Shown here: positions 2,921-52,137 of the stretch, in pieces | How the letters are laid out: every line of letters begins with the position of its first letter | Position numbering within the stretch: position 1 is the first letter of the stretch | The notes under the pieces: generated by a model | Told to the model about the DNA's origin: nothing | The model's input: only the letters and a program-made list of their open reading frames with translations | Databases searched by the model: none | Source: a bacterium | GTDB taxonomy: Bacteria > Moduliflexota > Moduliflexia > Moduliflexales > JAUQPW01 | Length of the DNA: 64,000 nucleotides | NCBI GenBank assembly: GCA_030550175.1 | Contig: JAUQPW010000004.1 | Span: forward strand, 21,211 to 85,210 | Direction: 5' to 3' | Program-made: the position numbers and the translations under genes

Positions 2921-3098
2921 TACTTTGTAAAGTTAAATTTGAGTAATCATTTTGCCCTCACCCTCGGCCCCTCTCCCGAAGCTTCGGGAGAGGGTTACCG
3001 GGAAGCTGACCTGGAGATCCACCGGCTCCCCTCTCCCGCAGCGTGGGAGAGGGGCCGAGGGTGAGGGCCACTTAAAAGTCAAGCAAAACTAAGTAAAC
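2921..3098. mobile_element. MITE/REP-like composite element, copy 1. Two arms, each holding the core palindrome GCCCTCACCCTCGGCCCCTCTCCC / GGGAGAGGGGCCGAGGGTGAGGGC around AAGCTT or CAGCGTG.
   Basis: Inverted repeats read directly. The same family recurs at 8387, 27544, 46828 and 58038. Confidence 0.7.
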
Positions 3099-8386: not shown

Positions 8387-8486
8387 ATTGTAAAGCTCAT
8401 TCGGTATAACTCCATCCCTCTCCCGAAGCTTGGGGAGAGGGGCCGGGGGTGAAGGCAAAGAGTTACACAGGATTAACTTTACAAAG
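8387..8486. mobile_element. MITE/REP-like element, copy 2 (about 100 bp). TTGTAAAG-type terminal inverted repeats flank the CCCTCTCCCGAAGCTTGGGGAGAGGG core.
   Basis: Core and flanks are the reverse complement of the left arm of copy 1. Confidence 0.65.
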
Positions 8487-11915: not shown

Positions 11916-14336
11916 ATGATTACGATTAATAAACAATTTAATCTGGTTTTTGACGAAAGCCTTATCCAGATCTCGAATACCCGGAAGTTTCCTTTTAAAT
12001 GTGTCCTCAGTTTCTCACCCTTTATAGACTTCTGGAGTCAGACCGGATCTCGGAATCAGGCCTTTAAGGCTCCCCTTATTAAAAAAGTTCGAGAAGAATT
12101 AGAGAAGGTACCTGAGTTATTAGGCCCCATTGAAGATCTCTCGATCCTCGAGAAGCACAAAGAACTCATCGATATGCTGATGACCCTGGTTTTTCCACCT
12201 GCTTTTTGGGATCGAGATTATCTGGCGGCTCTTATTCCCTATCACTTCCGGATTTTCTATGCCACGCTTTCTTTTGAGCGGTTTCTGATGGAAAACAGGA
12301 ACTTCATCGGACGGACACACTTAGATGAGCGGGCCATGACCTATGGAACCCTGTTGAAAGCCTATAGCCATATTCTCCAGAAGTTTTACAATGTAAAATT
12401 TGAGTTCGAATACCCCCTGATATTTACAACCCGAGACCCTGAAACAGGATTAGACCGTCACTTTAAATTCAATTTTGATCCACGATTTTGTGAGGTAAGA
12501 AAAGTCGGAGTAGTCAAACCCCTGACCGATGAGGAAAAAAAATACCTCTTCAATAACCTGACGAACTTAAAGACCTGGATGGAACTTATACCCCCTGAAA
12601 ATTTTGAATTTCACGGCTTTACGGTCATCACGGCTACCGATGTCACAGATCAAGAGGTTCTCTCGTCTTTAAAGCGGGATTTGATAGATAGGGAATCTAT
12701 TGTCTCCAGTAAAAAATTCCGCAGCCTGCAAGAAAAACTAAGGACACTCCTCAGGTTGCCGGATCTGGTGTTGGGACTTGCAGCTATCCAGGGGGATCAG
12801 GTATTTCTGATTAATTATGGGCGTAAACTCGAAAAATGCTGTATCTTCTCCGATTCCCAACATTTTAAAACTTCTGACTTTGCCGGTTCTATCTATGAAC
12901 GCTCGGTTAAACAGGGAAATTTGCTGATCATTGAAGATCTTGTAACTTATCCCCATCGCTCGCCAGTCGAAGATCAGATCCTCGCTCAAGGGATCCGAAG
13001 CATGATCGTTGCGCCTCTCTACTATCAGGATAAACTGATCGGGACCCTGGAATTGGGATCCCCGAACCCCGGAGGACTGAATGCCTTAAATGCCCTGAAG
13101 TTAGGGGAGGTTCTTCCTTTATTTTCTGTGGCCGTTAATCGAAGTATGGAAGAGCTAGATAATCGTGTCCAGGCCATTATCAAGAAAAAGTATACAGCCA
13201 TCCATCCTTCGGTAGATTGGCGTTTTCGAAAAGCTGTTCTTAATTATATTGAGAAACGTAATCGGGGTATTCACGAGGAAATAGAGCAGATTGTATTTGA
13301 TAACGTTTATCCCTTATTTGGCGCTACAGATATTCGTGGCTCCTCTACGCAGCGTAATACAGCGATTCAGGCTGATTTAATTGAGCACCTGACGCTGGTC
13401 AGAGAAATTATTCTCCTGGCGGCGAGTTATAAATCCCTTCCTATTCTCGATGAACTTGTTTATCGGATCAATAACAAAATAGCAAAAGTAGAAGCGAGTC
13501 TGGGCTCCGGGGATGAAATCACTTTACTTGATTTCTTACGTCGGGAAGTCGAGCCTCTGTTCGATACCTTGAAAGATTTCGGTCCGGGTATCCAGGATAA
13601 AATTCAGGCTTATCGGTCTGCCCTGGATCCCCAATTGGGAATTATCTATCGTAGGCGGAAGGATTTTGAAGAAAGTGTTGCCCGAATCAACGATACCATC
13701 TCAGATTATCTCGATGAAGAAGAAGAAAAAGCCCAGGCTATGTTTCCCCATTATTTTGAAAAACATAAAACAGATGGTGTGGATCACGGCATTTATATCG
13801 GTGCTTCCCTGGTTGAGGATGGGAAATTCGATTTACTTTATCTGAAAAATCTTCGCCTCTGGCAACTTATGACCGTCTGTGGGATAGCCAGGAAAACCGA
13901 AGAGTTAAAAGGAAGTTTGAAGCTTCCTTTAGAAACAACTCATTTGATTCTGGTCCAGAATATGCCTATGTCTATTCGGTTCCGCATCGATGAAAAGCAA
14001 TTCGATGTGGATGGGGCCTACAATATCCGATACGAAATTGTGAAGAAGCGCATTGATAAAGCCACGATTAAAGGTAGGGATGAGCGGTTAACTCAACCCG
14101 GTAAGATCGCCATCGTTTATTCTCAACCTAAAGAAGCTCAGGAATATCGACAATATATCGACTATCTCCGGGACTCCGGTTATCTGACCGGTGAAGTAGA
14201 AGATTTGGAGTTGGAGGATCTTCAAGGTATCCAGGGGTTAAGGGCCTTACGGGTTATGGTAAATCTTCAAACATCCCTTCAAGGGCAAGATATCCTGCAG
14301 GAAGAAGGAAGAGGTGCGCTACAACCCGTAAATTAA
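11916..14336 (+). CDS. GAF domain-containing protein, 806 aa, function unknown
   Basis: Central GAF-like segment (...IRSMIVAPLYYQDKLIGTLELGSP...). Long flanking regions lack recognisable catalytic motifs. Confidence 0.55.
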   Translation: MITINKQFNLVFDESLIQISNTRKFPFKCVLSFSPFIDFWSQTGSRNQAFKAPLIKKVREELEKVPELLGPIEDLSILEKHKELIDMLMTLVFPPAFWDRDYLAALIPYHFRIFYATLSFERFLMENRNFIGRTHLDERAMTYGTLLKAYSHILQKFYNVKFEFEYPLIFTTRDPETGLDRHFKFNFDPRFCEVRKVGVVKPLTDEEKKYLFNNLTNLKTWMELIPPENFEFHGFTVITATDVTDQEVLSSLKRDLIDRESIVSSKKFRSLQEKLRTLLRLPDLVLGLAAIQGDQVFLINYGRKLEKCCIFSDSQHFKTSDFAGSIYERSVKQGNLLIIEDLVTYPHRSPVEDQILAQGIRSMIVAPLYYQDKLIGTLELGSPNPGGLNALNALKLGEVLPLFSVAVNRSMEELDNRVQAIIKKKYTAIHPSVDWRFRKAVLNYIEKRNRGIHEEIEQIVFDNVYPLFGATDIRGSSTQRNTAIQADLIEHLTLVREIILLAASYKSLPILDELVYRINNKIAKVEASLGSGDEITLLDFLRREVEPLFDTLKDFGPGIQDKIQAYRSALDPQLGIIYRRRKDFEESVARINDTISDYLDEEEEKAQAMFPHYFEKHKTDGVDHGIYIGASLVEDGKFDLLYLKNLRLWQLMTVCGIARKTEELKGSLKLPLETTHLILVQNMPMSIRFRIDEKQFDVDGAYNIRYEIVKKRIDKATIKGRDERLTQPGKIAIVYSQPKEAQEYRQYIDYLRDSGYLTGEVEDLELEDLQGIQGLRALRVMVNLQTSLQGQDILQEEGRGALQPVN

Positions 14337-21116: not shown

Positions 21117-21235
21117 GAATCTGAATCCAGAAGTCAGAATGATAAAATTTAATGCCAGATCTCATTCGTTCCTTGACGATGAGATGATTTTTCAGCTTTA
21201 TTTTGAATTTCTGACTCCTGACCCAAGAGCTTAAA

Positions 21236-24200
21236 ATGAAATTACCTCGCCTTCTACCTTACTCGACGCTTGCACGCCTGATCATCATTATAGGCCTTTT
21301 AAGTTGTTTGTTTTTAAGTTATCTGCTCACCCGGATCCAGCCTCATTTCGGGTTGTACTGGATGGTTTTAGACCTACTTGCCATTACCCTTATAGTTCTC
21401 GCCTTTCTTCAAGCTCGTAAGGGCTTTTCTAAATCCCCCCCGGCTATGATCGTGGATATGAAGATAAAAGGATCTGCCAAGGATAGTTTGCTGACGGCAC
21501 ATATTCAGAATATTGAAAGCAAGATCAAACCCCAGAAAGATCTGCCTTATTTAGAAGACTGGGGAGAAGTGATCCCAACAGATCCCTTTTACGGACGGGA
21601 AAAGGAACTAAGTAAGCTAACCCGATGGATTATGACCGACCGCTGCCGCATAATCGCCCTATTGGGCATGGGAGGAATGGGTAAAACGGCTCTTTCAAGG
21701 AAACTAGTAGAACAAATTAAAGATCGATTTGATTTTGTCATCTGGCGTTCCCTCCGGCATGCCCCTCCCCTGGAAGATCTGCTAGGGGACTTTCTCCAAA
21801 TTTTATCCCGCCAGCAACAACCAGAGCGACGAAAAAGTATAGAACGGAGAATAGATCTCTTAATGGAGTGTCTCCAGAGACATCGTTGCCTGATTATCCT
21901 GGATAATTTAGAATCGGTCCTTTCCCAGGATGATGATTCAGACCATTATCCAGAGGGTTATGAACCCTATGGCTGGCTCATTCAGCGAATAGGAGAAATC
22001 TCTCATCAGAGTTGCTTGATCTTAACCGGTCGAAGGAAACCCAAAGAAATCTTTCACCTGGAGGGTAGGATCTCCCCGGTTCGATCTTTACAACTGGGCG
22101 GATTAAGACCGGCCGAAATTCGGGAAATCTTGAAAGATCAGAATTTATCCGGAACCCAGGAAGCCTGGATAACCCTGGTTAACCGTTATGCCGGGAATCC
22201 TTTGGCCTTGAAGCTTGTTTCTGCAACTATCCAACACTCCTTTGGAGGAGATATAACAGAATTTCTAAAGCAGGAGACCTCAAACTTTAACTTTGAAGAT
22301 ATTCAGGATCTTTTAAATCGGCAATTTAATTCCCTCTCCAATCTAGAAGAAGATATTCTCTATTGGCTGGCCATCGACCGTGAACCTGTTTCGATAAAAG
22401 AATTACTGGAAGACATGATCCATCCCGTATCCAAAGCGAAATTAAAAGAGGCTTTGGAATCTTTACAAAAACGATTTCTGGTTGAAAAAGATGAAAACGA
22501 ACGTTTTACACTCCAGCCTACCCTCATGGACTATGGGATTAATCGGTTGATAGGGCGGATTTGTGAAGAGATTTCCACAGAAACCCCCATCTTCCTCAAC
22601 AGCCATGCACTCCTTAAAGCCCAGGAAAAAGATTACATCCGAGAGAGTCAAATTCGGGTTATCCTTAAACCTACGGCCGATAGGCTTCTTAAGACCTTAG
22701 GTAGAGAAGTTGTCGAAAGTAAATTAGATAATATTCTATCAACCTTGCGAGAAAAATCTCCCCTTATACCTGGATATACCGGAGGGAATGCCCTGAATCT
22801 TTTAGTCCAGATGGAAAGTGATATAAGGAGTTATAACTTCTCGGACTTAACGATCTGGCAGGCTTATCTCCCAGGGGTCGTCCTGCACAATGTCAACTTT
22901 GCCCACGCAGACTTGAGTAAATCTGTTTTTACGAAAACCTTTGGAAGTATTTCTTCGGTTGTATTCAGTTCCGATGGAAAGTTTTTGGCCGGAGGGGGGG
23001 CCGATGGTGAAATTCGCCTTTGGCAGGTGGAAGATACCCGACTGCTTTTCACGTTTAAGGGGCATACAGGTTCTGTAATTTCCATTGCTTTTAGCCCAGA
23101 CAGTAGCATGCTAGCCAGTAGCAGTGATGATCAGACGATTAAATTATGGGATATTCAGACCGGTCGGTGTTTTCAAACCCTGCGAGGACATACCAACTGG
23201 GTAAGATCTGTGGTTTTCAATCCAGGTGGAAAAATTTTGGCCAGTAGCAGTGATGATGAAACCGTCAAGTTATGGGATGTCCGTACCGGGGAATGCCTGA
23301 GAACACTCCGGGGACACACAAATTGGGTATGGTCTGTGGCTTTCAGTCCTGATGGAAATATCCTGGCCAGTGGGAGTGATGATCAGACGATCCGACTATG
23401 GGATACCCATACCGGGGAATGTCTCAAAATGTTACAGGGACACACCGGTTGGGTAGGTTCTGTAGCTTTTAGTCCGGATGGGAACTTCCTGGCTTCTGGA
23501 AGTGCCGATCAAACCATAAGATTGTGGGATGTCCAGACTGGTCAATGTTTTAAAATTTTGCACGGCCATACCGATCGGATAAAGTCTGTTGCGTTCAGTC
23601 CTAAAGGAAATATGTTGGGTAGTGGTTCTGAGGATCAAAGCATCAAGTTATGGAGTATGAAAACGGGTGAGTGTCTTAGAACGCTCCAGGGGCATACTGA
23701 TTGGGTAAACGCAATTGCCTTTAGTCCTGATGGACATCTGCTGGCCAGTGGGAGTGAAGATCAAACTATTCGCTTATCAGAGGTTCGTACGGGCCAGTGC
23801 CTTAGAACTCTCCAGGGATATACCAACGGAATATGGACTATTGCGCTGAGTCCAGACGGAAGTATTTTAGCCAGTGGGAGTGAAGATCGACTGGTTCGGT
23901 TGTGGGATGCCCGAACAGGTCGATGCTTTAAAATTTTGAAAGGACATACGAAACGCATAAGGTCCCTTGCCTTCAGTCCTGATAACCGTATTTTAGCCAG
24001 TAGTAGTGATGATCGAACCGTTAAACTCTGGGATATCCAAACCGGTCAGTGCCTCAAAACTTTAAAGGGACATACTTCTCGGGTGAGGTCTGTGACCTTC
24101 AGTCAGGATGGGCAAACGCTGGCGAGTCGAAGTGCTGACCGAATTGTAAAAGTATGGGATGTTCGAACGGGCCTGTGCCTGGAGACTTTCCAGGGATGGA

Positions 24201-24685
24201 CCCGCTACGTCCGATCCGTTGCCTTTAGTCCGGATGGCAGTACCTTCGCCGGTGCAGGTGAAAATTACACCGTCGGTTTATGGAGCGTAAGCACAGGTCG
24301 ATGCCTTAAAACCTTCCGGGGACATTTGAGCCAGGTCTGGTCGGTCGCCTTTAGCCCGGATGGAAATATCCTGACCAGCGGAAGTGAGGATCAAACCATA
24401 AGGTTATGGGACGTTCCTACCGGCCAATGTCTTAAAACCTTGTATGGCCACCGCCACGGAGTTTGGTCCCTGGTCTTTGATCCTACAGGGGGTGTTTTAA
24501 TTAGCGGTAGTGAAGATGAAACTATTAAGTTTTGGGATGTTCAAACAGGTGAATGTCTCAAAACGCTGAGAAATGACAGGCTTTGTGAAGGAATGAATAT
24601 CACAGGAGCTAAAGGCCTGTCCGAAGCCCAGAAAGCAACTCTCAAGGCTTTGGGAGCCATCGAAAACCTGGAAAATGTCAGTTGA
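21236..24685 (+). CDS. STAND NTPase (NB-ARC/AP-ATPase) with N-terminal two-helix transmembrane module and about 14 C-terminal WD40 repeats. Candidate Avs/NLR-like defence protein.
   Basis: Two hydrophobic helices at residues about 12-32 and 41-61. Walker [17 protein letters not shown], Walker [12 protein letters not shown], then [15 protein letters not shown]...LASGSxDxTIxLWD repeated about 14 times. Confidence 0.8.
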
Positions 24686-27543: not shown

Positions 27544-27700
27544 TACTTTGTAAAGTTAAATTCGAGTAACCATTCTGTCCTCACCTCCGGCCCCTCTCCT
27601 GAAGCTTAGGGAGAGAGGGCACTTGGGGAGTTGATCCGGAGATTTGCCGACTTCCCCTCTCCTACAGTGTGGGAAAGGGGCCGGAGGTGAGGGTGAGCAA
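27544..27700. mobile_element. MITE/REP-like composite element, copy 3
   Basis: TACTTTGTAAAGTTAAATTCGAGTAA...CCCCTCTCCTGAAGCTTAGGGAGAGAGGG...CCCCTCTCCTACAGTGTGGGAAAGGGGCCGGAGGTGAGGGTGAG is collinear with copy 1. Confidence 0.7.
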
Positions 27701-42547: not shown

Positions 42548-43264
42548 ATGACGCAATCCAGAAAACTGAAAGCCGATTTTCATTTACATACTTCTGAAGA
42601 TCCGGAGGATCTTTTTATTCGACATAGTTCTACAGAGCTCATCGATAAAGCAGCCGAATACGGGTTTGAAGTGTTGGCCATTACCCTTCATAACCGACAG
42701 CTTTATACCGATTATTTGAAAAACTACGCTTTGGATCGAGGGATACTCTTGATCCCAGGAATGGAAGCCACCATCGAAGGCAAGCATATTCTTCTTCTTA
42801 ATATGAACTGCGATTTAAGCAAAATCCGAAGGATTCAGGATTTAAGTCGATATACCGGTGATGATACCCTGGTTATCGCCGCCCATCCCTTCTTTCCAGA
42901 TTCTAAATGCCTGGGATCCAAACTGGAAAGGAATATAGAGGTTTTTAACGCCATCGAGTATAGCCATTTTTATCTGAAAAAAATCAATTTCAATGAAAAG
43001 GCCGTGCAGGTGGCGACTAAATATCAACTCCCCCTGGTAGGTACCTCAGATACCCACATCCTTCATCAATTCGGTAAAACTTTCTCCCTGGTGGAAGCCG
43101 ATCAAGAAATCGGCTCGGTGATTGAAGCGATTAAAAAAAGACGGGTTGAAGTCGTCAGCCAGGCCTTAACTCCCACCTACGCCGCCACGACCATGCTTCA
43201 ATTGAAATCTGGGATTATCAAGAAGCTAGAAAGGAAATTAAAGAAGTTCTTTTCGTCCCGGTAA
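42548..43264 (+). CDS. PHP-domain (polymerase/histidinol-phosphatase-like) metal-dependent phosphoesterase
   Basis: HLHTSED... N-terminal His motif, then further His/Asp motifs (TSDTHIL). Confidence 0.65.
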   Translation: MTQSRKLKADFHLHTSEDPEDLFIRHSSTELIDKAAEYGFEVLAITLHNRQLYTDYLKNYALDRGILLIPGMEATIEGKHILLLNMNCDLSKIRRIQDLSRYTGDDTLVIAAHPFFPDSKCLGSKLERNIEVFNAIEYSHFYLKKINFNEKAVQVATKYQLPLVGTSDTHILHQFGKTFSLVEADQEIGSVIEAIKKRRVEVVSQALTPTYAATTMLQLKSGIIKKLERKLKKFFSSR

Positions 43265-43444: not shown

Positions 43445-46400
43445 TTATCTCTTGGCCAATTCCAGCTTCAACTCTTCAATTACTTTTTGGAGTTCCCCGA
43501 TTTGATTGTCCGCTTTAACCAAAGCAATGGCTTTTTCGCTGACGGCTTGATTGGCTATATCCAACTGGCCACGGAGCTGGCTCACCTGAGTGGTTAACTC
43601 TCCCAGAGCCTTTTCCTTTTCTTCCAGCTTTTTCCTGAACTCTTCTTGCATCTGGTTGAACTGGCTTTGAAGTTGTGCGAAGGCTTTTTCCTTTTCGTCC
43701 AGATTCTTCCGGACTTCCTCCAGTTGATTTTGTAACTGACCGGGTTGGGATCGTAAGCTTTCAAGGGCCTGATCTTTTTCCAGGAGTTGATTGTTTGCGG
43801 TGTCTAACTGGCTTCGAAGTTGAGCCATCTGGGTCAACAAACCCTCTATTTCCTTGTTCTTTTCTTCCTGGCTACGTTGAGCTTCTTCTTGTAGTTGTTT
43901 CAATCGGGTCGTTAAGGTCGTAAGCTCCTCGTCTTTTCCCTGGAGACGGGCCAGGGCTTCTTCAAGTTTACCCTGTAATTGGTTTACCTGATCGGTTAAG
44001 CTTGCAAGCAACCTGTCTTTCTCCTGGAGGTTTTGTTTCGACTCTTCCTGTAATCGGTTAAGTTGATCCGTGGCCGCAGCCAGGGCTTTATCTTTTTCAC
44101 TCAGATCTTCATTAACTGCCGCCAGTTGGTTTTGGAGTTGATCGAACTGCATAGCCCAGTTCGCCAGGGCCTGATCCTTTTCGGCAAGGACCTTCTGGCT
44201 CTCTTCCTGAGCCAGGGTAAGCTGAGCTTTTAAATCGGCTACCAGTCGATCTTTTTCTTCTTGTAATTGATTGAGCTTATGGGTTACCCGGGCTAAGGCG
44301 ATGTTCTTTTCACTTATCATGTCTTGCAGCGTCTTCAACTGACCCTGCAACTGATTAACCTGTTGGGTCACGTTGGTCACTGCAGCCTCTTTCTCCGTCA
44401 AATTTTGTTGAGATTCTTTTTTTAACTGATCCAGTTGCCGGCTCAAGTCGGTCAAAGCCAGGGTTTTTTCGCTTATATTCTGGTTGGCAACTTCTATCTG
44501 GGTTCGTAGTTGATTTATCTCTGCTATCAACTCTGCAATCCTTTGTTCTTTTTTATCTAAAGCTTTCCTGGCTTCCTCCCGTTCTTGAGCCATCTGATCC
44601 TTAAGCGCCAGGAGGGTCTGTTCCTTTTCGTTCAAAGCCTGTTGAGTCTGGTTCTGTAACTGATTCAAGGAAGCATTCAAAGAGGCAATGATTTTATCTT
44701 TCTCCTCCAGGTTCTTCTTCATTTCTTCTTGTAACTGACGGGATTGCTTATGCGAATCGGCCAACGCAAGGGTTTTTTCGCTCACATTCTGATTGGCAAA
44801 ATCCAGTTGACCCTGAAGTTGATTTAATCTGGCCGTTAGATCGGCAACTACCCGGTCTTTTTCTTCTAAACCTTTCTTTATTTCTTCCTGCAGTTGACGA
44901 ACCTGCGTGTTTAAGTCCGCAGCTATCTTTTCATTTTTCTCTAAATTCTCCTGGAGCTGGTTTCGCTGATGAATCAAATGGGCTAAAGCATTGGTTTTTT
45001 CACTGAGATTTTGGTGGGTTACTTCCAGTTGACCACGTAATTGATTTAACTGGCCTGTTAAATCCCCGATCACCCTGTCTTTCTTTGCCAGATTCTCCTG
45101 GAGTTGATTGAGTTGGTTGGTCAGGTTTACCAGGGTAATTGCTTTTTCACCTATATGTTGATGGGCCGTATTCAGTTGGGTTCGCAGCTGATTTACTTCT
45201 TGGGTTAGATCCCCGATCTTTTGCTCTTTCTCTGCCAAGCTCTTTTGAGTCTCTTTTTGTTCTCTACTCAATTCGTCAAGATTATTCTGGATCTTAGCCT
45301 GTAGATTTTTCTGCTGATGGAGTGCTTCGGTTAACCGATTCACTTCAGTATTTTTTGCCTCTAATTGAGCCCGTAATTGGTTCAACTGATCGGTTAAGCT
45401 GGCAAGAACTGCTTCCTTTTCTTGCAGATTTTTCCTACTTTCCTCCTGGACTCGATCCAATCGATTGGCTAAATCAGAGAGAGCTAATGTTTTTTCACTG
45501 AGGCTTTGATTGGCTGCATTAAGCTGGCCCAGAGACTGATTTAGTTGCGCAGTCAGGTTGGTAATGACCTGCTCTTTTTCGGTTACATTCTTTTGATATT
45601 CCTCTTGAAGTTGATTCAACTGCTTGCTTAAGTTATTGAACGCGAGGCTCTTTTCGCTGGCGTTTTGACGAGCAATATCCATTTGACCTCGGATTTGGTT
45701 GATCTGCGAAGCCAGTTCATTAACCACTCGCTCCTTTTCTGCTAAAATCCTTTGGGTTTCCTCTTGCTCCTGACTCTTCTTTTCTAAGTTACTTCGGATT
45801 TCCTCCAATTGTTTAGCGTGCCGGTTGAGATCTGCCATCAGGTTATCGATCTGAGTGTTTTTCTCATCCAGTTGAGCCTGCAACTGGTTGATCCGGCTGT
45901 TCAACTCCTCCAGGGCTTTGTTCTTTTCTTCCAGATTTTTTTGAGTTTCCTCGTGGGTCCGATTTAACTCCTTATGGATTCCCTCCAATTCAGCCAGATC
46001 CTGGTTGGCTTTCTTTAGCTGATCCTGCAACTGAGCAATCTGCTCAGTTAAATGCGTAGTTTCCCTGTCCTTTGCAGCTAACCTCTTATTTTCCCCTTGA
46101 AGCCGTCCGATCTGTTCTTTTAAGTCGGTCAAGGCTTTATCCTTTTCGGCAAGACCTTTATTTTCCTCTTGAAGCCGTCCGATCTGTTCTTTTAAGTCGG
46201 TCAAGGCTTTATCCTTCTCACTCAGGCTTTGATCGGCGTTTTTGAGTTGATCTTGCAATTCATTTACTCGAGCGGTTAAATCTCTTACCTGAGCTTCCTT
46301 TTCACTTAATGCTCTCTTAAAATCCTCCTGGACCTGGTTAAGTTGAGTTCGTAGGGTTATGAGTTCTTTGTCTTTTTCTTCAATATTTCTGCCGGCGTCT

Positions 46401-46627
46401 TCGAGTTTGCTCTGTGAATTTTTAAGTTGAGTATTTAGATCGGCCAGGATTTTATCTTTTTCGCTTAACTGCTTTTTAGATTCCTCTTGGATTTGATTTA
46501 ACTGATAACCCAGTTTACGAACTTCGCTCCTTTTGCTTGCATAGAGTCCTGTCATAAAAACTACTGCTATGGCCATGACAAGACTTAAAATGCCTAAACT
46601 TTTCTTTGTAAAAATTTGTACTTCCAT
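43445..46627 (-). CDS. Giant membrane-anchored coiled-coil protein (1060 aa) built from about 50-aa tandem repeats. Cytoskeleton-like / filament-forming candidate.
   Basis: N-terminal transmembrane helix (LGILSLVMAIAVVFMTGLY), then about 1000 residues of heptad-rich repeats (LTxQLNQLxGQLxxANQxLSEKxxAL...). Nearly no Pro, Gly or aromatic residues. Confidence 0.7.
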   Translation of the reverse strand: MEVQIFTKKSLGILSLVMAIAVVFMTGLYASKRSEVRKLGYQLNQIQEESKKQLSEKDKILADLNTQLKNSQSKLEDAGRNIEEKDKELITLRTQLNQVQEDFKRALSEKEAQVRDLTARVNELQDQLKNADQSLSEKDKALTDLKEQIGRLQEENKGLAEKDKALTDLKEQIGRLQGENKRLAAKDRETTHLTEQIAQLQDQLKKANQDLAELEGIHKELNRTHEETQKNLEEKNKALEELNSRINQLQAQLDEKNTQIDNLMADLNRHAKQLEEIRSNLEKKSQEQEETQRILAEKERVVNELASQINQIRGQMDIARQNASEKSLAFNNLSKQLNQLQEEYQKNVTEKEQVITNLTAQLNQSLGQLNAANQSLSEKTLALSDLANRLDRVQEESRKNLQEKEAVLASLTDQLNQLRAQLEAKNTEVNRLTEALHQQKNLQAKIQNNLDELSREQKETQKSLAEKEQKIGDLTQEVNQLRTQLNTAHQHIGEKAITLVNLTNQLNQLQENLAKKDRVIGDLTGQLNQLRGQLEVTHQNLSEKTNALAHLIHQRNQLQENLEKNEKIAADLNTQVRQLQEEIKKGLEEKDRVVADLTARLNQLQGQLDFANQNVSEKTLALADSHKQSRQLQEEMKKNLEEKDKIIASLNASLNQLQNQTQQALNEKEQTLLALKDQMAQEREEARKALDKKEQRIAELIAEINQLRTQIEVANQNISEKTLALTDLSRQLDQLKKESQQNLTEKEAAVTNVTQQVNQLQGQLKTLQDMISEKNIALARVTHKLNQLQEEKDRLVADLKAQLTLAQEESQKVLAEKDQALANWAMQFDQLQNQLAAVNEDLSEKDKALAAATDQLNRLQEESKQNLQEKDRLLASLTDQVNQLQGKLEEALARLQGKDEELTTLTTRLKQLQEEAQRSQEEKNKEIEGLLTQMAQLRSQLDTANNQLLEKDQALESLRSQPGQLQNQLEEVRKNLDEKEKAFAQLQSQFNQMQEEFRKKLEEKEKALGELTTQVSQLRGQLDIANQAVSEKAIALVKADNQIGELQKVIEELKLELAKR
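46097..46216. repeat. Tandem duplication of a 72-bp (24-aa) unit inside the coiled-coil gene. The first about 48 nt of the two units are identical.
   Basis: TTGAAGCCGTCCGATCTGTTCTTTTAAGTCGGTCAAGGCTTTATCCTT occurs at 46097 and again at 46169. The protein reads LTDLKEQIGRLQEENK... twice. Confidence 0.8.
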
Positions 46628-46827
46628 ACTTCTTTTCTGACTGCCTCCTCCCTAAAGTTGTTAAACTACCATTGAAAATTGATAACAATTGTCCAACAAG
46701 AATCCCCTATTTCTGGGGAATATGTCAAGGGGTTTTTTGGAAATCTTCATGGGACATGAAATCCAGATAATTTTTAATACCCAGTTGGGTTTGATAGGAA
46801 GAAGTATCGTATTGTTATCTTGTAATA

Positions 46828-46945
46828 CACTGTTTACTTAATTGTAACCTCATAGGACTGCTTTCACTCCCTAACCCCCCCTGCTGGGAGAGGGGCCGGG
46901 GGTGAGGGCTGCTTAAAAGTCAAACAAAACTAAGTAAACAATATA
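46828..46945. mobile_element. MITE-like element, copy 4, with TGTTTACTTA(A/G)TT terminal inverted repeats and the GGGAGAGGGGCCGGGGGTGAGGGC core
   Basis: Left end ACACTGTTTACTTAATTG and right end AACTAAGTAAACA are reverse complements. The internal core is shared with the other copies. Confidence 0.65.
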
Positions 46946-48498: not shown

Positions 48499-49320
48499 TT
48501 ATTTAGAAACAAGGGGAGGGGAAAAGGGGTTCTGATAGGTTTCTCGACGCCAGCGGTAGGGGAGATCCCGGATCGTGCCGGGGGTATCCAGAATCTGGAG
48601 CGCATCCAGCATCTCTTTTAGAATGGTCATTTGTTGATTTACCTGAAAGGGTTCTCCCAAAGGATGCCCGAAAGGCCAACGAAGAAACAAAGCCCTGGGA
48701 GGTTTAACGGCTTCTGTAATTTTACGTACCAGGGTGATAGAAATCGTAGAAATACCCTTCCGTTCAACTTCTCGCTGGATCAGTCCTACAGACTGATTGC
48801 AGAGCCCTCAGGCCGGGGTTAAAAGGACTGCATCCACCTGAGCTGCCCTAAGTTTTTCGGCCACCTCAGGAGCTGTTTGTCGTATCAGGATATCTATCAA
48901 ATCCTTATCGATATGGCCCATAAAACTGTAATGAAAAGGGGCTTCTTCTCCAATGACCCGGAGTTGGACCAGCTCTTTTAAGCGTTCTATGGGGAAGATG
49001 ATATTGATATCCCTGTCGGCATCGTGATGATCGTAGTAATCATGGGTAATCGTTAAGTCCTCCCGGGAAGTATCTCGAGGAATTTCCCGGTAGGTAGGGT
49101 CTCCCTGGGGGTTTTTCATGTCAAAGGGGGGTTGATTTTTTAAATGAACGCCACCTGTTGTAATTAAGGCGACCCGACAATCTTTAATCTCTTTCTTTAA
49201 GGGCGTCCAGGGAACGTCCCGACTTTCCCGAAAAGAGGTTTTCTCTGCCCAACGATCCGCGAGTTGAGGGAATTTTGTAAAGAATTTAGCCAGAAGTCTA
49301 TTTTTAATGCTTCGAAACAA
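48499..49320 (-). CDS. Selenoprotein B-like (GrdB/PrdB-family-like) reductase component with one in-frame TGA (Sec) at 48808-48810 in a U-G-L-C redox motif. The ORF track splits it into two ORFs.
   Basis: Minus-strand ORFs 48808..49320 and 48499..48690 share one reading frame (630 nt apart). The 117-nt gap between them is open in that frame, and the only interruption is the TGA. Read-through gives ...AVLLTPA-U-GLCNQSVGLIQREVERKG.... The N-terminal part carries ALITTGGVHLK. Only alternative starts (TTG) are available. Confidence 0.55.
48778..48798 (-). promoter_or_regulatory. SECIS-like stem-loop 10 nt downstream of the in-frame UGA (7-bp perfect stem AUCAGUC / GACUGAU, loop UGUAG containing GU)
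   Basis: The mRNA reads UGA GGGCUCUGCA AUCAGUC UGUAG GACUGAU C. Spacing and apical GU are compatible with a bacterial SECIS. Confidence 0.4.
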
Positions 49321-50097: not shown

Positions 50098-52137
50098 CTA
50101 ACTTCCAGATCGCTTTTTCAACTCTTTGATCTTATCCCTTAACACGGCAGCCCTTTCAAATTCCAGTTTCTTAGCCGCTTCCTTCATCTCTTTCTCTAAC
50201 CTGGCTATCAGATTGGAAATATCCTCATCGGTGAGATACTCTGCCGGCTTCTCAGCCACTAGCAATTTATCCTGCGCGAGGTCTAAAGATCTATCCTGAG
50301 AAAGGGGAACCGTATAGTAATCCGCCTCATAGACGCTTCCCAGAATGTTGGTGATGGATTTCTGAATGGACTCTGGAGTAATCCCATGTTCTTCATTATA
50401 CCTTCGCTGTTTTTCTCTCCGTCGGTTGGATTCTTGAATGGCTTCCCGGATAGATTGGGTTATCTTATCTGCATACATGATGACCAATCCATTGACATTT
50501 CGGGCAGCTCGTCCCGCAGTTTGAATCAAGGAGGTTGTAGACCGCAGGTAGCCTTCCTTATCGGCATCTAGAATTGCAACCAGAGAAACTTCCGGGATAT
50601 CGAGTCCTTCTCGAAGCAAATTCACTCCAATGAGCGCATCGTATTTCCCCATCCGGAGGTCCCGAATAATCTCCACCCGTTCCAGCGTATCGATATCGGA
50701 ATGGAGATAGCGCACTTTCAAACCCAAGTCGGTATAGTATTCGGTAAGATCTTCGGCCATGCGCTTGGTCAGCGTCGTCACCAGCACCCGTTCATTTCGC
50801 CTGGCCCGGGCTTTGATTTCTGCCATGAGGTCATCGACCTGTCCGGCAACAGGTCGAACTACAATCTCAGGATCCATAAGTCCGGTGGGACGGATAACTT
50901 GCTCCACAACGACTCCCTGACTTTTTTCCAATTCATAAGGACCCGGTGTGGCCGAAACGTAAATAACCTGGGAGACCTGTTTTTCAAACTCTTCAAATTT
51001 CAATGGACGATTGTCCAGGGCCGAAGGAAGTCGAAATCCGTATTCCACCAGGGTGGTCTTCCGGGAACGGTCTCCGATATACATGCCTTTAAGTTGGGGG
51101 ATGGTCACATGGCTTTCATCGATGACAATCAACGAATCTCTGGGGAAGTAGTCCAGCAAAGTGGGAGGGGGTTCTCCTGGCTGTCGACCACTGAGATGAC
51201 GGGAGTAATTTTCAATCCCATGGCAGTAACCTACCTCCTGAATCATCTCCAGATCGAACATGGTCCGTTGATGCAGCCGTTGCATTTCCAGTAACTTTCC
51301 TTGTGCCCGAAGTTCCGCTTCCCGTTCCGCCAGCTCTATTTTAATATTTTCGATGGCCCGTTTGAGGGTATCCGCCGGAGTAACATAATGACTGGCAGGA
51401 TAGATGACCACCCGGTCCAGCTTTCCCAAGGTTTTTCCCGTTAACGGATCAAAAACAGCCAGGGTATCTACTTCATCCCCAAACAACTCAATCCGGATAC
51501 CTTCATCCTGGTAAGAAGGATAAATTTCAATGACATCCCCTCGAGCCCGAAAAGTTCCCCGAGAGAAACCAATATCATTGCGCTCGTAGTGGATGGAGAC
51601 AAGTTTCCTCAAAATTTCTTGGCGACTGATGGGCTGTCCCTGGTCTAGAAAAAGGAGCATTCCATAATAGGCTTCTGGAGAACCTAAACCATAAATGCAA
51701 GAGACACTGGCCACAATGATGACATCCCGTCTTTCAAAAAGGGATCGGGTTGCCGAATGCCGCATTTTATCAATATATTCATTAATCGAAGCATCCTTCT
51801 CTATATAGGTGTCTGTACTGGGAATATAAGCCTCCGGCTGATAGTAATCGTAATAACTGACAAAGTACTCTACGGCGTTCTCAGGAAAAAATTCACGAAA
51901 TTCATTGAAAAGCTGAGCGGCTAAAGTTTTATTATGGGCAATAACCAGCGTGGGTTTCTGGACCTGTTCAATGACATTGGCAATGGTGAAAGTCTTACCC
52001 GATCCGGTCACTCCCAATAAAACCTGATGGCGATCTCCTCTTTTTATGCCTTCCACTAACTCTCGAATAGCAGAAATTTGATCCCCGGCGGGCTTAAAAT
52101 TAGAGACCAAGCGAAATTTGTTGGGTTTACGTTGCAT
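50098..52137 (-). CDS. uvrB: Excinuclease ABC subunit B
   Basis: [10 protein letters not shown] Walker A, helicase motifs, a beta-hairpin region, and the C-terminal UvrB/UvrC interaction domain ([15 protein letters not shown]). Confidence 0.9.

Follow-up and report, generated by a model that had tools for sequence, protein, structure and literature searches.

A predicted membrane-anchored coiled-coil protein built of 53-residue modules and without detectable relatives

A gene on the reverse strand of the window analysed here (the whole 64,000-nucleotide stretch from position 21,211 to 85,210 of bacterial contig JAUQPW010000004.1, assembly GCA_030550175.1) encodes a protein of 1060 amino acids (aa) that is predicted to be an almost unbroken coiled coil behind one N-terminal membrane anchor. 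Membrane-anchored coiled-coil proteins are common in bacteria, and this one is tidy rather than surprising; nevertheless, two points are notable. First, the rod repeats a regular module of 53 residues, which corresponds to seven heptads plus one four-residue stutter (53 = 7 x 7 + 4). Second, relatives are completely lacking among those detectable in public databases, and by sequence comparison the protein is a new, so far unique family. The structural description is fairly clear, and the function is one that we infer: we tentatively propose, with a little less than even confidence, a lineage-specific cytoplasmic scaffold, tether or landmark.

Results

The repeat was defined by comparing the protein with itself. 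A period of 53 aa was dominant, with an identity at this lag of 25.2% versus 9.5 +/- 0.9% in shuffled sequences (z = 17.4), and secondary peaks were observed at lags of 28 aa (z = 11) and 25 aa (z = 8). Cutting the sequence at the recurrent "EK" yields pieces of these same two lengths, 28 aa and 25 aa, in alternation. An iterated hidden Markov model (HMM) parse recovered 17 near-full 53-aa units and partial ones, spanning aa 32-1048, and a parse by half-units read BABABBABABABABABABABBABABABABAABABAABAB, that is, 39 half-units in which the alternation is broken at four places. The initial annotation of this gene had described a repeat of about 50 aa occurring about 17 times; the number was right in substance, but the period is 53 aa. 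The consensus is EKxxxVxDLTxQLNQLxGQLxxANQxLS for half-unit type A (28 aa) and EKxxALxDLxxQLNQLQEExxKNLx for type B (25 aa), and the core motif [LIVF]NQ[LIVSM] occurs 17 times versus 0.76 expected. On the surface, uncharged Gln/Asn patches (QLNQLQxQL) alternate every 25-28 residues with charged boundaries (EExxK..EKD), and the acidic and basic residues cluster together at the unit boundaries, with no separate plus and minus zoning. The composition of the whole protein is extreme, as 67% of all residues are Leu, Gln, Glu, Lys, Ala or Asn, with a single Pro and no Cys.

The repeats are in phase with a helical core. Alignment of the units places the hydrophobic residues in columns 6, 9, 13, 16, 20, 23, 27, (30), 34, 37, 41, 44, (48) and 52, with a restart at column 6 of the next unit; the A/B boundary keeps the 3-4 spacing, and the B/A boundary contains one 4-4 step, which is the stutter. 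A register table places L/I/V at a positions and L at d positions, and the a-to-a spacing is 7 across both kinds of boundary. Of the 15 core layers in each unit, only one is Ala, and four are weak: both "EK" motifs place an invariant Lys at d, column 51 holds Asn, and column 48 is variable. Tracking of the register along the protein detected shifts of +4 about once per unit and shifts of +3 at both of the 24-aa duplicated units described below. The hydrophobic Fourier power peaked at a period of 3.533 residues, or 53/15 (10.05, versus 0.83 on average and at most 2.05 in shuffled sequences), with 2.45 at 3.50 and 0.08 at 3.667, although this peak is partly forced, as a 53-periodic amphipathic sequence puts power at harmonics of 53. 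A continuous helix is therefore supported more strongly by the spacing, which stays in phase across both boundaries. With a period of 3.53, the supercoil would be left-handed and somewhat weaker than one built of pure heptads, following the reasoning in PMC9858780. At 0.1485 nm per residue, one unit measures ~7.9 nm, and the rod would reach up to ~153 nm if fully extended.

Structure prediction agreed with this description. For the two best consecutive units (aa 297-402), AlphaFold2, run as a monomer with seven other double units of the same protein as the alignment, predicted one helix over residues 2-105 in all five models (predicted local distance difference test, pLDDT, 96.9). The full-length protein, run without an alignment, was modelled at low confidence (pLDDT 53) as ~88% helix, with helices of 85-145 residues separated by aperiodic breaks. 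Globular domains, which the initial annotation had named as grounds for doubting its own description, were predicted in neither the full-length nor the two-unit models. Thus, the near-continuous heptad coil of about 1000 residues described at first is supported by the register, the periodicity and the unbroken helix over two units, and the ~1030 residues behind the anchor are taken as helical throughout. By its period of 3.533, its L/I/V/L core and the AlphaFold2 helix at pLDDT 96.9, the protein falls among the bacterial coiled-coil-rich proteins, a class that is descriptive and not a homology family.

A fold of helical hairpins or spectrin-like bundles was also considered for these repeats, two units (2 x 53) amounting to 106 aa. 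A spectrin-like reading was rejected, since three helices per 106 aa are incompatible with a period of 53 aa and a single helix was predicted; the model argues against helical hairpins as well. This point bears on EzrA, a division regulator of Firmicutes, which also has a single N-terminal membrane anchor, a trait present here with an orientation read from flanking charges alone. The two proteins are further alike in having a helical repeat region with heptad patterns, the cytoplasmic location being predicted in the present case. However, EzrA is made up of a four-helix bundle and five spectrin-like bundles, each antiparallel, triple-helical and roughly 100 aa long (PMC4243239). Two units of the present protein are instead predicted to form a single straight helix, the protein is double the length of EzrA, and no match to the EzrA family was found in Pfam or NCBIfam. 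The contrast with EzrA drawn in the initial annotation was therefore apt, but for another reason than length and regularity, because EzrA is a chain of spectrin-like bundles and not a continuous coil.

The search for relatives covered several collections. Word-indexed searches of 5.8 billion clusters returned nothing at E <= 1e-10 with the protein and nothing at E <= 1e-3 with a profile of the 17 units. An exhaustive phmmer search of 1.84 billion representatives of ~15 billion proteins returned 47 proteins at E <= 1e-3, one at E <= 1e-10 and none at E <= 1e-30, all with 20-32% identity; the best match (E 3.6e-13, 27% identity) is an unrelated coiled-coil protein. The twelve top matches were inspected and proved to be unrelated proteins with EK-type coiled-coil repeats of their own, of 14-21 aa or longer, which by sequence reading are joined to glycosyltransferase-, OmpA- or PAS-type regions or lie in eukaryote-like giant proteins. 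No relative turned up when genomes and metagenomes were scanned with the protein, phages and plasmids yielded nothing by tblastn, and the window contains no paralogue. Pfam, NCBIfam, PHROGs, PADLOC and PDB gave weak partial matches only, which we read as generic coil similarity, among them matches to DUF948 over aa 13-77, to the coils of JetC, LmuB and ZorA, and to phage tape-measure proteins. In the two libraries with curated cutoffs (Pfam and NCBIfam), the scores fall far below them. The case shows that a long coiled-coil protein may be entirely without relatives even when 15 billion proteins are considered, and the function of such orphan coils must come from localisation experiments and not from homology.

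The reality of the gene is well supported. The frame is uninterrupted over 1060 codons from its ATG, and the 3183-nt open frame extends just 8 codons further upstream to an in-frame TAG stop at 46652-46654, which sets the N-terminus; because the frame opens only there and the Shine-Dalgarno-like GGGAGGAGG precedes the ATG, the start is well defined. The possibility that the frame is spurious or an assembly artefact of collapsed or chimeric repeats is hardly credible: the DNA is repetitive, and an exact look-up of the protein in an index of 153 billion genes gave no record, but such a frame cannot arise by chance, and it carries a strong position-specific amino-acid pattern. The product of the neighbouring uvrB is equally missing from that index, and the absence of the coiled-coil protein is therefore taken to reflect an unsampled lineage. 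In addition, the repeats are too diverged to collapse. DNA identity is just 40-62% between all unit pairs other than one 72-bp pair, and short DNA repeat families in the gene, with spacings of 75, 84, 147 and 159 nt, are 60-89% identical. Since the units share so little DNA identity, the array is old, and the collapsed-repeat artefact that the initial annotation had itself raised as a concern is unlikely.

The exceptional pair is a tandem duplication, reported by Tandem Repeats Finder at 46081-46216 (period 72, 1.9 copies, 96% matches). When aligned by codons, the two 24-aa copies span 46076-46219 and are identical at 64 of 72 nt, with a longest exact run of 49 nt and the differences gathered at the 3' edge. 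A recent 72-bp duplication had been recognised before, but its extent was given as 46097-46216 and the exact run as 48 nt. The copy number at this 144-bp stretch is the sole point of the array that needs reads to verify. Half-units of one type share 39% identity (both A-A and B-B) versus 28% between A and B; therefore, an older duplication made the A/B pair, after which the 53-aa pair was amplified. Three other irregular spots in the half-unit parse (BB at aa 543-588, AA at aa 791-843 and AA at aa 922-977) record earlier gains or losses of half-units. Read from the sequence, the array thus grew by duplication of units and half-units, with the 72-bp duplication as the latest event.

The membrane anchor was predicted at the N-terminus. 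The only strongly hydrophobic window of the protein is aa 10-28 (Kyte-Doolittle maximum 2.3), within an uncharged stretch of 22 residues from S10 to S31, and this lone segment bears out the single N-terminal transmembrane helix described initially. Two Lys precede it (MEVQIFTKK), and four Lys/Arg lie in the eight residues after it (SKRSEVRK). By the positive-inside rule, which is established knowledge, the rod on the C-terminal side is more likely cytoplasmic, with the 9-residue N-terminus outside. A lipoprotein was ruled out, because the protein has no cysteine and no lipobox, and a type IV pilin-like signal was ruled out as well, since no G↓F...E5 motif is present.

The opposite topology, an exported rod with either a cleaved signal peptide or an N-in signal-anchor, serving as a periplasmic or envelope spacer, ruler or scaffold that lies along the membrane or reaches across to an outer layer, is unlikely but deserves weighing. 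The N-terminus shows the outline of a signal peptide (an n-region with KK, an h-region and ...LYA↓S). By sequence reading, lipoprotein or signal sequences and periplasmic domains occur in some of the weak matches whose EK-type repeats are similar; for example, the C-terminus is OmpA-like in P0007 and of the sulfatase-modifying type in P0011, which also has a lipobox. Moreover, the affinities of the UvrB encoded in the window (Nitrospirota and Desulfobacterota-like metagenome-assembled genomes, MAGs) suggest a diderm host and hence a periplasm. However, KR at +2/+3 and RK at +7/+8 follow the putative cleavage site, and basic residues soon after such a site block Sec export; the uncharged stretch of 22 residues is longer than expected for the h-region of a signal peptide; and the C-terminus has no globular, wall-binding, OmpA-like, beta-barrel or lipid-anchor domain in Pfam or NCBIfam. 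An extended rod of ~150 nm is also far beyond the width of the periplasm (~25-30 nm). The periplasmic ruler suggested in the initial annotation is disfavoured by this length, by SKRSEVRK after the anchor and by the 22-residue hydrophobic stretch.

Discussion

Herein, we propose a working model for this protein. Parallel chains would pair or bundle in register, giving a left-handed coiled coil that is slightly under-wound. This rod would be attached to the cytoplasmic side of the membrane, with the short N-terminus pointing outward. Such a rod might serve as a structural scaffold, tether or landmark, in which the periodic Gln/Asn patches between Glu/Lys boundaries could mediate self-association or client binding and the number of modules would set the reach. 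Several points weigh against this proposal. No homologue, conserved neighbour or operon partner offers a functional handle, and the charge rule is the sole basis for the topology of the rod. Besides the partly forced Fourier peak, AlphaFold2 was applied to a monomer with internal repeats as the alignment, and the full-length model has a pLDDT of only 53. In addition, an invariant Lys occupies a core d position of both half-units and an Asn another, and most e and g positions hold Gln/Asn/Thr/Ala and not salt-bridge pairs; for these reasons, a simple dimer is not assured.

Judged by architecture, TipN, a polar landmark of Caulobacter, may be the closest analogue: both combine N-terminal transmembrane segment(s) with a large coiled coil, the cytoplasmic topology being predicted in the present case. 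TipN has two transmembrane segments and the present protein one. We know of no 53-residue tandem repeat in TipN, and no sequence similarity between the two is detectable, the best match of the exhaustive search being the one at E 3.6e-13 and 27% identity. In the passages of PMC4085708 that were consulted, TipN is described as a landmark that is dispensable for growth and has N-terminal transmembrane segments, a large cytoplasmic coiled coil and a narrow phylogenetic range, and a 53-residue tandem repeat is not mentioned there.

Alternatively, the protein might be an intermediate-filament-like cytoskeletal element in the manner of crescentin, FilP or CcfM, which would polymerise laterally into filaments attached to the membrane and so determine cell shape or the position of organelles; we regard this sharper form of the scaffold proposal as decidedly unlikely. 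Long rods with stutters are typical of such proteins, and the likeness to crescentin and CcfM extends to a place at the inner face of the membrane (here by predicted topology). The periodic Gln/Asn patches could mediate lateral packing, and the top Pfam match is the crescentin rod (Rod_CreS, PF19220; E 3e-14). This match was nevertheless rejected as evidence of membership, as its 53.3 bits fall short of the cutoff of 100 and generic coil families do equally well. In addition, a head, linker and tail organisation is missing, and the charges show no separate plus and minus zoning. The absence of such zoning also sets the protein apart from the rods of myosin II and paramyosin, which resemble it in having a 28-residue (four-heptad) repeat within a long coiled coil, with occasional phase-shifting insertions. 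These rods are eukaryotic and have no membrane anchor, and their separated plus and minus charge periodicity drives staggered assembly, unlike the charges that cluster together at the unit boundaries of the present protein. CcfM, for its part, localises along the membrane as a filament by way of its coiled-coil motifs (PMC9512821), which lends the filament alternative some weight.

The Scy and FilP proteins of Streptomyces, to which the initial annotation had likened this one, are similar as very long bacterial coiled-coil rods with a regular non-heptad periodicity, Scy exceeding 1000 residues. Their N-termini carry a DivIVA-like motif, their rods are rich in hendecads and have Ala cores, and a membrane anchor is absent (PMC9858780). 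Unlike them, the present protein has a transmembrane anchor, heptads with a stutter (3.53, not 3.67) and a Leu/Ile/Val core; no DivIVA family occurs among its Pfam matches at E <= 1, and its Fourier power of 0.08 at 3.667 versus 10.05 at 3.533 indicates no hendecad periodicity. The suggested kinship is not supported.

A further alternative, of low probability, is a fast-evolving accessory protein without a structural role, whose coil might serve, for example, in membrane stress (DUF948/PspA type), in defence or exclusion, or as a module resembling SMC or tape-measure proteins. The gene is an orphan that stands alone beside a degraded region and a repeat element, and the weak matches listed above include DUF948, JetC, LmuB, ZorA and phage tape-measure proteins. 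However, the Pfam and NCBIfam matches stay under the curated cutoffs; those from PHROGs and PADLOC are weak, and their listed best stretches lie mid-profile and are read as coiled coil. No ATPase, MotA or other partner domain was found, tblastn against phages and plasmids was without a match, and no phage or defence family was matched by the flanking genes tested or by the other large genes of the window that were scanned. Three known types were rejected individually. For SMC, Rad50, JetC and LmuB, the SMC score was 129.9 bits versus a cutoff of 567, and the ATPase head halves were not found; the SMC-type matches sit mid-profile (e.g. 234-488 of 1181) and are read as coiled-coil arms. A TolA-type protein was rejected, as Pfam showed no C-terminal TolA domain and the protein ends 13 residues past its last repeat. 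A phage tape-measure protein was rejected because the PHROG matches are weak (E 6e-12) and cover only 187 of 1555 profile positions, there is no phage match by tblastn and the neighbours are housekeeping genes.

We also attach a slight probability to a bolder view, in which the protein would be the first of an unrecognised family of modular rods with a membrane anchor from a poorly sampled lineage, acting as a golgin-like tether or molecular ruler. With ~7.9 nm per 53-residue module and up to ~150 nm in all, its reach would be tuned by the gain or loss of modules, and it might set the distance from the cytoplasmic membrane to an internal structure or organise a submembrane lattice. Returning to the coiled coil itself, if the structural reading is right, this would be an unusually clean natural example with a fixed 53-residue module (seven heptads and a stutter) and a single membrane anchor. 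It could then be a useful model for the way in which regular stutters tune supercoiling, and possibly a length-programmable tether.

Genomic context and other observations in the window

Table 1. Coordinates (positions in the window) of the coiled-coil gene, its parts and the intergenic repeat element
Feature	Coordinates	Strand	Basis or remark
Complete gene, 1060-aa coiled-coil repeat protein	43445-46627	(-)	Open reading frame (ORF); appears monocistronic
Shine-Dalgarno-like GGGAGGAGG	46644-46652	(-)	16 nt ahead of ATG; read from sequence
Hydrophobic segment, aa 10-31, SLGILSLVMAIAVVFMTGLYAS	46535-46600	(-)	Kyte-Doolittle; read as transmembrane signal-anchor
Juxtamembrane basic cluster KRSEVRK, aa 32-38	46514-46534	(-)	Grounds for inferring a cytoplasmic rod
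Repeat array, aa 42-1047, ~39 half-units = ~17 full 53-aa units	43487-46504	(-)	Self-comparison and HMM parses
Copy 1 of 72-bp tandem duplication, 24 aa, B-type, aa 137-160	46148-46219	(-)	Codon-aligned
Copy 2 of 72-bp tandem duplication, aa 161-184	46076-46147	(-)	Codon-aligned
Best-preserved consecutive pair of 53-aa units, aa 297-402	45422-45739	(-)	HMM parse; predicted single continuous helix
Short C-terminal tail KVIEELKLELAKR, aa 1048-1060	43448-43486	(-)	Protein ends 13 residues past last repeat
Copies of CCCTCACCCCCGGCCCCTCTCCC	2955-2977(+)/3045-3067(-), 8433-8455(-), 27578-27600(+)/27671-27693(-), 46886-46908(-)		Up to 3 mismatches allowed

The genomic context gives no functional clue, because the gene stands alone and 80 uvrB loci of other genomes share neither its neighbourhood nor any relative of the coiled-coil protein. 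Its 3' end converges on a PHP-family gene at 42548-43264 (+), whose product has no relative in the metagenome contigs. A functional link between these two genes through TrlF was considered and looks coincidental, as the genes converge and the scores are far below the cutoff. The NCBIfam TrlF model (PHP plus ATPase, 944 positions) is matched weakly by both proteins, by the PHP protein at positions 6-113 and by the coiled-coil protein at positions 469-705, which we take to be the coil of that model. Upstream of the gene, an intergenic region of 658 bp holds a repeat element, and beyond it lie an operon for an ATP-binding cassette (ABC) transporter of the branched-chain amino-acid type and genes for a cyclase, a probable GrdB-like selenoprotein and UvrB. 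A promoter and terminator scan found nothing informative.

The repeat element is the 23-nt G+C-rich CCCTCACCCCCGGCCCCTCTCCC, which occurs six times in intergenic regions versus 0 expected when up to 3 mismatches are allowed. It forms two inverted pairs ~90 nt apart and looks like a repeat of the repetitive extragenic palindromic (REP) or miniature inverted-repeat transposable element (MITE) type; the coiled-coil gene has one copy 260 bp upstream. The segment 47286-48498 is probably a decayed gene remnant adjoining this gene: it contains a 128-aa ORF with an N-terminal hydrophobic segment and a faint match to Phosphoesterase PF04185 (E 0.097), followed by ~830 bp without an ORF longer than 76 aa, and it has the lowest G+C of the window (0.40).

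The GrdB-family ORF at 48499-49320 (-) (PF07355, E 4e-10) probably encodes a selenocysteine protein, to judge from an in-frame TGA at 48805-48807 beyond which the frame goes on for 101 codons (...LLTPA-U-GLC...). A hairpin, AUCAGUCU-GUA-GGACUGAU, begins ~12 nt past the UGA and is a candidate bacterial selenocysteine insertion sequence (SECIS) element, with a fold z-score of only -0.86 and no Rfam match. The uvrB gene lies at 50098-52137 (-). As noted above, its exact product is missing from the 153-billion-gene index; the best relative is 70% identical and comes from a Nitrospirota MAG, followed by MAGs labelled Deltaproteobacteria, Nitrospiria and Syntrophus. The source lineage is poorly sampled.

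Elsewhere in the 64 kb, no tRNA genes were found, and no Rfam family reached its gathering score. The 806-aa protein encoded at 11916-14336 (+) has no Pfam match at E <= 1e-5. The 1149-aa protein encoded at 21236-24685 (+) is without a listed match over its first ~560 residues and has WD40 beta-propeller matches listed within aa 563-1106.

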